Assembly: GCA_964016885.1 (NCBI GenBank)
Contig: OZ024762.1
Location: 14,136,001-14,200,000, forward strand
Reading direction: 5' to 3'
Source: Eledone cirrhosa
Taxonomy: Eukaryota
Length of the DNA stretch: 64,000 nt
Shown here: piece after piece, positions 5,430 through 58,457 of the stretch
How the letters are laid out: each line of letters starts with the position of its first letter
Position numbering within the stretch: the first letter of the stretch is position 1
Made by a program: the position numbers and the translations under genes
Notes under the pieces: model-generated
What the model saw: the letters and a program-made list of their open reading frames with translations, nothing else
Database searches by the model: none
Told to the model about the DNA's origin: nothing

Positions 5430-5562
5430 GTTATTCCGGGTTGAATCGGAGGTAACCACAGTAAGTAAGGTACTCGATACAAAGCAGAGTATAAAAGTTT
5501 TAATATAGATGAGATTCTACAGGACTAGAACTGTTTCATTCTTTAGAAATCATCAGGAATCT
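5429..5562 (-). mobile_element. Family B pLTR-like element with an intact minimal HHR (5512-5562)
   Basis: Minus strand: agattc CTGATGA tttc-taaa-gaat GAAA cag-ttctagtc-ctgt A gaatct; (TA)n on both sides. Confidence 0.8.
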
Positions 5563-57486: not shown

Positions 57487-57581
57487 TTACTTCTTTTGGG
57501 TTTTTTTCCTTTTTTTCTTCTTCCCCTTTTCTTTTTTTCTTCTTCCCCTTTTCTTTCTTCCTCTATCCTCACTATAACTTC

Positions 57582-57691
57582 TTTCCCTTATGGCTTTTGA
57601 TGGATAAAAGGCCATGGGCGCGATACGGATCGATGTTCTGTTTTAAGCGCCGAAACATCTAAGATCCGTAGTAAACAGCTGACGAAGGAAA
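57582..57691 (+). ncRNA. Family H: non-circularly permuted hammerhead-like RNA, copy 2
   Basis: gatgt-T-ctgttt (57632-57643), gcgcc-GAAAcatc (57647-57659), aaacag-CTGACGA (57673-57685). Confidence 0.7.
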
Positions 57692-57732
57692 ACTTTTCTT
57701 CTCTTGTTTACGTCTCGATTACCTTCTAACAC

Positions 57733-58195: not shown

Positions 58196-58320
58196 GGCGA
58201 CACTAACAAGAGATGGAGTGTTTCCTTTCATCAGTTGTCTATTATGGATCTTGTCTATAATGCGCTGACTCGTAGTAGACAACTTATGAAGGGAAACTGG
58301 CTATCCCTCGTGAGTGTCGT
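58196..58320. mobile_element. Decayed, folded-back family H copy
   Basis: Minus arm tagacaaCTGATGAaaggaaac; plus arm gat-C-ttgtct..gcgc...gtagacaaCTTATGAagggaaac; GAAA segment lost. Confidence 0.6.
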
Positions 58321-58457
58321 TATCAATAACCACACAGCGCCATCTCCCTCAATCCATATATTTGTGTGTATATTATATATACACTGGCCAAAATCTATCA
58401 AAGATAGATTTTGGCCAGTATTAGCCCAGGTCATGTCTAACTTAATAGCACCACCGT

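Follow-up and report, generated by a model that had tools for sequence, protein, structure and literature searches.

What is the compact fold at 57582 of the window (by which we mean the whole 64,000-nt stretch of Eledone cirrhosa DNA analysed here), and what might its job be? On balance, we favor the view that it belongs to a multi-thousand-copy, non-coding repeat that probably folds into a self-cleaving hammerhead and would cut tandem transcripts into unit-length RNAs. The conserved motif of ~110 nt carries its blocks in the order site-GAAA-CUGANGA. Ahead of the GAAA, a short linker joins stems I and II; of the 84 parsed copies, 37 have one of 3 nt and 47 one of 5 nt. Read from the letters, the block order is the type-SGC permutation, a non-circular form of the hammerhead described by Eckert et al. 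2023 (PMC10085705), but with block C split. In the available portions of that paper, SGC ribozymes are known only from metatranscriptomes and CSG ribozymes only from metagenomes, both cleave in vitro, and none occurs in the genome of a known organism except for one weak bacterial GCS candidate. Block C is also assumed there to be uninterruptible, an assumption that the A9-to-10.1 break described here violates and that must be counted against our preferred reading.

What follows A9 in the motif is not a canonical stem II, which we tried and rejected (a mean of 2.2 of 5 pairs over the 84 parsed copies vs. 4.1 of 5 for the upstream strand), but helix IIa, closed by the 5' end of the motif, and then, without a gap, hairpin P and the stem II strand. 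Block C is thus interrupted, with IIa and usually P sitting between A9 and 10.1, and we infer a four-way junction at A9/10.1, through which stem IIb would stack on the core and serve as stem II. In the copy at 57582, the displaced strand (57617..57621) makes five of five pairs with 57647-57651 (GCGCC), and all five show two-sided change across the family; the duplex energies are -0.7 kcal/mol for a canonical stem II vs. -8.4 kcal/mol for one built from the upstream strand, and stem I alone comes to -3.6 kcal/mol as a duplex. Helix IIa appears with other letters in other subfamilies (UUUCC/GGAAA, UAUCC/GGAUA and GUCC/GGAC), as does hairpin P, which keeps its position in subfamilies B-E and G and is absent from subfamily F (older; L188-L216), where IIa stands without P between IIa and IIb and the A9/10.1 insert would be a simpler junction. 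The outer helix comes after the stem II strand and before the stem I strand; it lies 5', not 3' as in SGC.

The letters of the cleavage site obey the NUH rule, although the search did not select for them: U16.1 is kept in 79 of the 84 copies and H17 is something other than G in 81, neither having been asked for by the search pattern, and among 89 aligned copies H17 is G in only 2 and otherwise A, C or U. For the copy at 57582, the sequence-based prediction is a cut between 57637 and 57638, after GUU. Both intact copies in the window, this one and the one near 42795, have the CUGANGA and GAAA core letters and fold better than dinucleotide shuffles (z of -2.8 and -3.3), although nested folding is blind to the two crossing helices and favors a hairpin made of stem III and the outer helix. 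A minus-strand reading is ruled out, since that strand carries no core letters. An Rfam search of 57540-57730 gave no hammerhead match at E up to 10, as is to be expected when the order is permuted and pseudoknotted, and over the whole window nothing reached gathering level, the only matches being microsatellite-driven ones to miRNA families.

Much of this had been proposed in an initial annotation made from the window alone. Each of the helix strands and core motifs that it named occurs once, in the expected place, in the copies at 57582 and 42795, which share their order and differ in their letters; its placement of the GUU site at 57635-37 and of an intact C11.1 (57651, next to G12 at 57652) was correct; and the decayed copies at 29605 and 58196, from which it argued for a dispersed family that folds back, are both dead members (Table 1). 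It had also called the copy at 57582 a good assay candidate, and here the verdict is mixed. The core letters are intact. Against this, the copy has a mismatched A (G.A-type) at 57623, a position atop the outer helix that forms a C-G pair in 81 of 89 copies; helix IIa contains a C.A mismatch; hairpin P is short by one base; the 5' end of the unit is truncated; and the site, as throughout subfamily A, is GUU, without the kink-turn adenine. GUU is probably a slower NUH triplet, although the literature that we searched gave no rate for such sites. Units of the array described below, or members of the AUC- or AUA-site subfamilies with a full kink-turn, would be better first constructs.

Table 1. 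Copies of the motif in the window and parts of the copy at 57582 (window positions)
Feature	Positions	Strand	Remarks
5'-truncated repeat unit copy, subfamily A	57527..57732	+	ends at (TA)n run
Helix IIa, 5' strand	57582..57588	+	pairs with 57686-57692; one C.A mismatch (57585/57689)
Hairpin P	57589..57616	+	strands 57590/57606; flush between IIa and IIb; arm of predicted four-way junction
Stem II(b), 5' strand (10.1-10.5)	57617..57621	+	GGCGC; displaced upstream of cleavage block
Outer (interaction) helix, 5' strand	57624..57631	+	pairs with 57663-57670; covaries in family
Block S	57632..57643	+	stem III strand 57632-36; predicted site GUU 57635-37; stem I strand 57638-43
Linker and block G	57644..57659	+	3-nt linker; stem II 3' strand 57647-51; GAAA 57652-55; stem III strand 57655-59
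3-nt bulge, then GA and outer helix 3' strand	57660..57670	+	kink-turn position; no standard kink-turn in subfamily A
Split block C	57673..57692	+	57673-78, strand of stem I; 57679-85, CUGACGA; IIa 3' strand follows in place of stem II
Second copy, subfamily B	42764..42950	+	core intact; AUC site 42840-42
Dead subfamily B copy	29583..29700	+	stem I 3' strand and CUG deleted
Dead fold-back copy	58196..58330	+	GAAA block deleted; core mutated; inverted piece 58219-58240

How large is the family, and is its structure real? Three exact patterns run against the 3.0-Gb genome returned 2688, 918 and 288 matches vs. 8, 2 and 1 for the reversed or control patterns; these counts are lower bounds, the first pattern being disjoint from the other two by design, and for CUGANGA and GAAA, which the patterns required, only the excess over the controls counts. 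We sampled ~150 loci, nearly all from one contig (C1), together with 30 close relatives of the window copy, and subfamily A is overrepresented in the sample because of those relatives. Of 124 motif matches, 84 are full length and 40 are truncated or rearranged. For the alignment, 156 matches with a 34-nt span from GAAA to CUGANGA were reduced to 97 by a sequence filter and, after 8 truncated ones were dropped, to 89 copies in 71 columns.

Among the 88 distinct copies, 90.5% of the cells pair vs. 71.9% when partners are shuffled and 32-45% when they are slid, and two-sided changes occur in 20 of the 22 pairs, both crossing helices included. Stems I and III are each 93.4% paired (two-sided change in 6 of 6 and 4 of 5 pairs), and the outer helix is 91.9% paired (5 of 6); the weakest helix is IIb, at 82.7%, with 10.1-11.1 non-standard in 35 of 88 copies. 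Several changes are transversion pairs: G-C, A-U and U-A at 10.2-11.2, and U-A, G-C and C-G at 1.2-2.2. In the majority sequence of every one of the seven subfamilies, stem I makes 6 of 6 pairs, and among 5040 reassignments of the 3' strands only 6 do as well for stem I, 28 for IIb, 12 for stem III and 1 for the outer helix; the motif itself was the basis for clustering, which makes the subfamilies dependent on the stems, and the copies are related, so that shuffle counts are not probabilities. In a blind test, we specified only the 3' half of the motif and barred the stem I letters already known; the upstream partners matched (at least four of six Watson-Crick positions) in 21 of 24 cases, the remaining 3 being truncated. 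The window motif is a real and strongly conserved structure, then, and the selection on RNA structure that the initial annotation read from two copies is backed much more strongly by the covariation of the family, in which the stem I and IIb pairings that it singled out are maintained.

We also applied a structural descriptor with fixed offsets: 56 of 94, 20 of 25 and 11 of 29 matches from this genome pass it (rates that include truncated copies) vs. 1 of 78 distinct matches from viral contigs, and we have treated the 96 viral-contig matches as chance. Metagenome contigs gave no pattern matches. When four representative units from different subfamilies are compared, the alignment is confined to the motif and a CT-rich patch, and across the 71 nearly gap-free columns the helix lengths are fixed. 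Three loci (L193, L204 and L205, at 1501) may hold a further subfamily, with a 32-nt span from GAAA to the core and different stems I and III.

The repeat that carries the motif has the look of a retrozyme. Units are ~510-720 nt overall, ~70% pyrimidine and low in GC, with one motif each and no long ORF (in four low-complexity units, the longest Met-ORF has 35-131 aa). The initial annotation had raised the possibility that long copies adjoin ORFs of Penelope-like elements; what they adjoin is further units of themselves: the upstream neighbor is another unit and not an ORF, with ~570-720 nt from motif to motif in dimers. One array (C1:81550001-81630000; L218-L225) holds at least 155 units of 502-540 nt at ~97% identity, with 150 intact motifs; satellite-like, with alternating stem I variants, it fills all 80 kb that we examined and runs past both ends. 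The copy at 57527..57732 is 90.3% identical over 207 nt to a longer copy at another locus (L038). Insertions end mostly 25-110 nt after the core, 82 of 97 copies have a microsatellite in the 260 nt downstream, compared with 44% of random windows from the same loci, and inverted truncated or fold-back pieces are common (58219-58240 and 42968-42990 in the window; L017 and L080 elsewhere). These ORF-less tandem units with microsatellite ends resemble the non-LTR retrozymes, which, in the accessible text of PMC7229834 and 10.64898/2026.07.22.740005, are likewise ORF-less tandem units, from dimers to long arrays, with one motif per unit, low GC and a relation to Penelope-like pseudo-LTRs. The retrozymes differ in having type I hammerheads and units of ~150-450 bp and in being expressed as highly self-paired circles, whereas our family has units of ~510-720 nt, a pyrimidine content of ~70% and a non-circular permutation. 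The main texts of these two papers contain no mention of octopus or other cephalopods.

How might such a motif close on itself? A kink-turn of the box C/D type has, as its consensus, a 3-nt bulge followed by tandem G.A/A.G pairs. At the junction between stem III and the outer helix, 77 of 84 copies have a 3-nt bulge and then GA (the pattern did not ask for GA), and in four of the seven subfamilies the bulge is followed by GA opposite GA and then U.U. These four, together with the Octopus Naiads introduced below, share with box C/D kink-turns, by their letters, the G.A and A.G pairs, the U.U at 3b-3n and the C-G at -1; the coral, clam shrimp and hydrozoan Naiads differ in having other junctions. 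Over the 89 copies, 1n is A in 60 and 2n is G in 40; 2n is U in two other subfamilies, and in subfamily A, 1n is C and an ordinary G-C pair stands there. By our rough estimate, a sharp bend at this junction would bring the outer helix to the tops of stems I and II, a closure within one molecule that is geometrically tight but possible.

In the fold that we propose, stem II would be rebuilt from the upstream strand and stacked on the core through the four-way junction at A9/10.1, and the outer helix, which in most subfamilies would bend at the kink-turn, would support stems I and II at their tops, like the "interaction" helix of SGC ribozymes. Transcription through tandem units would be followed by cleavage after NUH and by ligation to a circle, which a Penelope-like enzyme might reverse transcribe at a (TA)n nick, as has been proposed for non-LTR retrozymes; such reverse transcription would give truncated, inverted and longer-than-unit insertions of the kind we see.

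Compared with type SGC as available in PMC10085705 (HRIMA-1 and its variants), the window family shares the order site-GAAA-CUGANGA, the short linker between stems I and II, all core letters and a G-to-C linker helix that would connect stems I and II at their tops. It differs in that SGC has a whole block C, with stem II after CUGANGA, whereas here the stem II 5' strand lies upstream, as does the interaction strand; IIa, usually together with P, closes the A9/10.1 gap; stem III is connected to the outer helix by a kink-turn-like bulge; and the motif belongs to the genome of an animal. With type CSG (two metagenomic sequences in the same paper), the family shares the circular order of strands, but the circle is opened here between A9 and 10.1 and not at the III/outer junction. 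Our search of the literature, which lay largely outside subscription journals, found no non-circularly permuted hammerheads in eukaryotic genomes or in Naiads, and none with a split block C; in the portions available, PMC13725137 cites just two sources for alternative forms, the 2023 paper and one on a fungal virus, and PMC10162972 has no comparable variant.

Where, then, did these repeats come from? The Naiad clade of Penelope-like elements, which in the available parts of Craig et al. 2021 (PMC8557442) is stated to lack canonical hammerheads, with some elements marked as "core" or "half core", shares with our family its (TA)n targets, its inverted truncated copies and a motif near the 3' end. 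Tails listed from the 54 Naiad consensus sequences there were parsed by eye, a procedure that misses motifs split by line ends, and at least ~11 of the 54 show the layout IIa-P-IIb-outer-III-site-I; elements with the fold, in which the helices are retained in unrelated letters, come from octopus, squid, coral, other cnidarians, clam shrimp and ctenophore. Naiad_Obim and Naiad_Ovul show the full layout with the 34-nt span and with the hairpin loop and kink-turn letters of subfamilies found here. Three near-identical Acropora Naiads have UAGGAU/AUCCUA as stem I, GGCUCC/GGAGCC as IIb and the linker UUAAU, as in this genome, and a coral Naiad joins a 12-bp stem III without a gap to a 10-bp outer helix. 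The layout is also full in Naiad_EuTe and in three elements of the part of the file that runs from hydrozoans to cubozoans and acanthocephalans; it is weaker in Naiad_Esco and one ctenophore element. Against generality, the tail ends of Naiad_Omin, Adux, Ppla and 1_Skow, in the same material, have no such motif, and no bivalve Naiad tail is among the core matches listed.

Six Naiads in the nematode part of these data (Naiad-1, -2 and -3_Nbra, named by header, and three others placed by file order) are, by eye, of the CSG type, with a whole block C, a canonical stem II and GUC sites. They have the same circular order as the window family, opened at the III/outer junction rather than at A9/10.1, and this order, with its canonical stem II, supports IIb as the real stem II. 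In several spider and ostracod Naiad tails (File S5, as available), a GAAA lies upstream of CUGANGA, and a helix made with a neighboring strand comes right after the core; these are possibly another permuted variant.

It is likely, going by architecture, that the repeats descend from a Naiad tail. We argue from architecture because the Octopus Naiad motif is absent from this genome (no matches with two patterns) and what we find of the ORF is a decayed remnant: the repeats have no ORF, and their letters are unlike those of the Octopus Naiad motif; the 1.5-kb flanks of the sampled loci contain no Naiad ORF motif; and degenerate patterns for the ORF gave 0 matches in this genome and then 1 vs. 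4 in controls, the one (L217, ~900-1530) being a heavily decayed Naiad-like ORF remnant, recognized by eye from short peptide motifs and without a hammerhead motif, with which a DNA search returned only an unrelated flanking repeat. We also considered as parent a Hydra-clade family, with ORFs near three loci (L062, L041 and L065), and rejected it, since its 3' end is different and the motif occurs in none of 30 loci among the matches listed; the adjacency is likely to reflect shared (TA)n targeting. This young Penelope-like family (L127-L156, on many contigs), with 107 scored matches at 97-100% identity, has many open frames of 713 aa, for which Pfam gave no match, and a long 3' UTR, and near its 3' end there is a type I-like hammerhead layout in which CAGAAGA replaces CUGANGA. 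It is a candidate trans-mobiliser of the repeats.

The Naiad tails also bear on the alternatives to a hammerhead that closes within one molecule. One alternative keeps the same chemistry and swaps the partners: stem III and the outer helix would form a rod, and the loop of this rod would pair with another copy, at whose far end lie the stem II and stem I/CUGANGA strands. The two active sites so formed would be confined to tandem transcripts or to contacts between circles. This would suit the tandem arrangement of the units, the nested fold is exactly that rod, and minimal hammerheads of Penelope-like elements reportedly cleave as dimers; the gapless run of 12-bp stem III and 10-bp outer helix in the coral Naiad, moreover, looks hard to close as a monomer. 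Still, we think the domain-swapped dimer unlikely, because a monomeric CSG fold suits the nematode Naiads, which open at the III/outer junction, because the helix lengths are fixed and a putative kink-turn sits just where a monomer must bend, and because some natural SGC ribozymes in the available part of PMC10085705 themselves join the interaction helix to stem III without a linker. Catalysis of one kind or the other, by monomer or by dimer, seems to us very likely from the sequences.

Could the motif instead be a hammerhead by descent that is now kept as a non-catalytic structure, such as a recognition site for the Penelope-like RT/endonuclease near the 3' end of the RNA? Insertions do end ~25-110 nt after the motif, where such an enzyme would start, and many of them contain the uncut site; 10.1-11.1 is often mismatched, and we found no tested precedent for a split at A9. 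We nevertheless judge this quite improbable, since U16.1 and a non-G H17 are kept though unselected, and an H17 that is A, C or U and almost never G is a signature of cleavage chemistry, not of protein binding; as for the mismatch, canonical hammerheads of the Hydra clade often have U.U at 10.1-11.1 too (PMC8557442 File S2, as available). That the inverted repeats are a DNA-level by-product, made or corrected by template switching at insertion and without RNA function, is very improbable and already largely refuted by the covariation and descriptor results, for, common as fold-back copies are in the family, two covarying helices of only 5-6 bp each cross the nested hairpin, several of the changes are transversion pairs and the six-helix layout recurs in Naiads of several phyla.

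What would it mean if our preferred reading, the self-cleaving hammerhead, were extended to the Naiads themselves? The tail motif likely cuts Naiad RNA, and we consider a broader claim, read from the same comparisons, rather probable: that Naiads, which are among the most abundant invertebrate retroelements, use non-circularly permuted hammerheads, of type CSG in nematodes and of a seventh topology, beyond the six published, in cnidarians, ctenophores, a crustacean and cephalopods (in this topology a four-way junction would split block C and a kink-turn would act as brace), and that their non-autonomous offspring are circular-RNA retrozymes with thousands of genomic copies. What is new here is probably a variant of a known ribozyme class, together with its host element. 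If true, the motifs would provide the first cases of non-circular RNA permutation in eukaryotic genomes for which the host element is known; non-circular permutations would move from a few environmental contigs into animal genomes, with a host and a job; and a topology would be added that the published scheme of six orders excluded. Hammerheads would have seemed to be missing from Naiads because the searches used circular (type I-III) descriptors, and any census that relies on Rfam or on type I patterns would overlook thousands of motifs in each genome. As two openings of one circle, the forms in nematodes and elsewhere would offer a natural test of permutation evolution.

Two further features of the window deserve mention. 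Beside the dead copy at 29583, a near-perfect inverted repeat of 52 bp (29718-29824) belongs to the end of another repeat and has an Rfam miRNA match far under threshold. Several other short repeats in the window have type I-like cores, with CUGANGA and then GAAAC, at 5556(-), 14030, 42618 and 51472(-); at 16062, 58076 and 61760; at 15870 and 60754(-); and at 43126, and the base of stem II is U.U in some of these, a feature shared with Hydra-clade elements.
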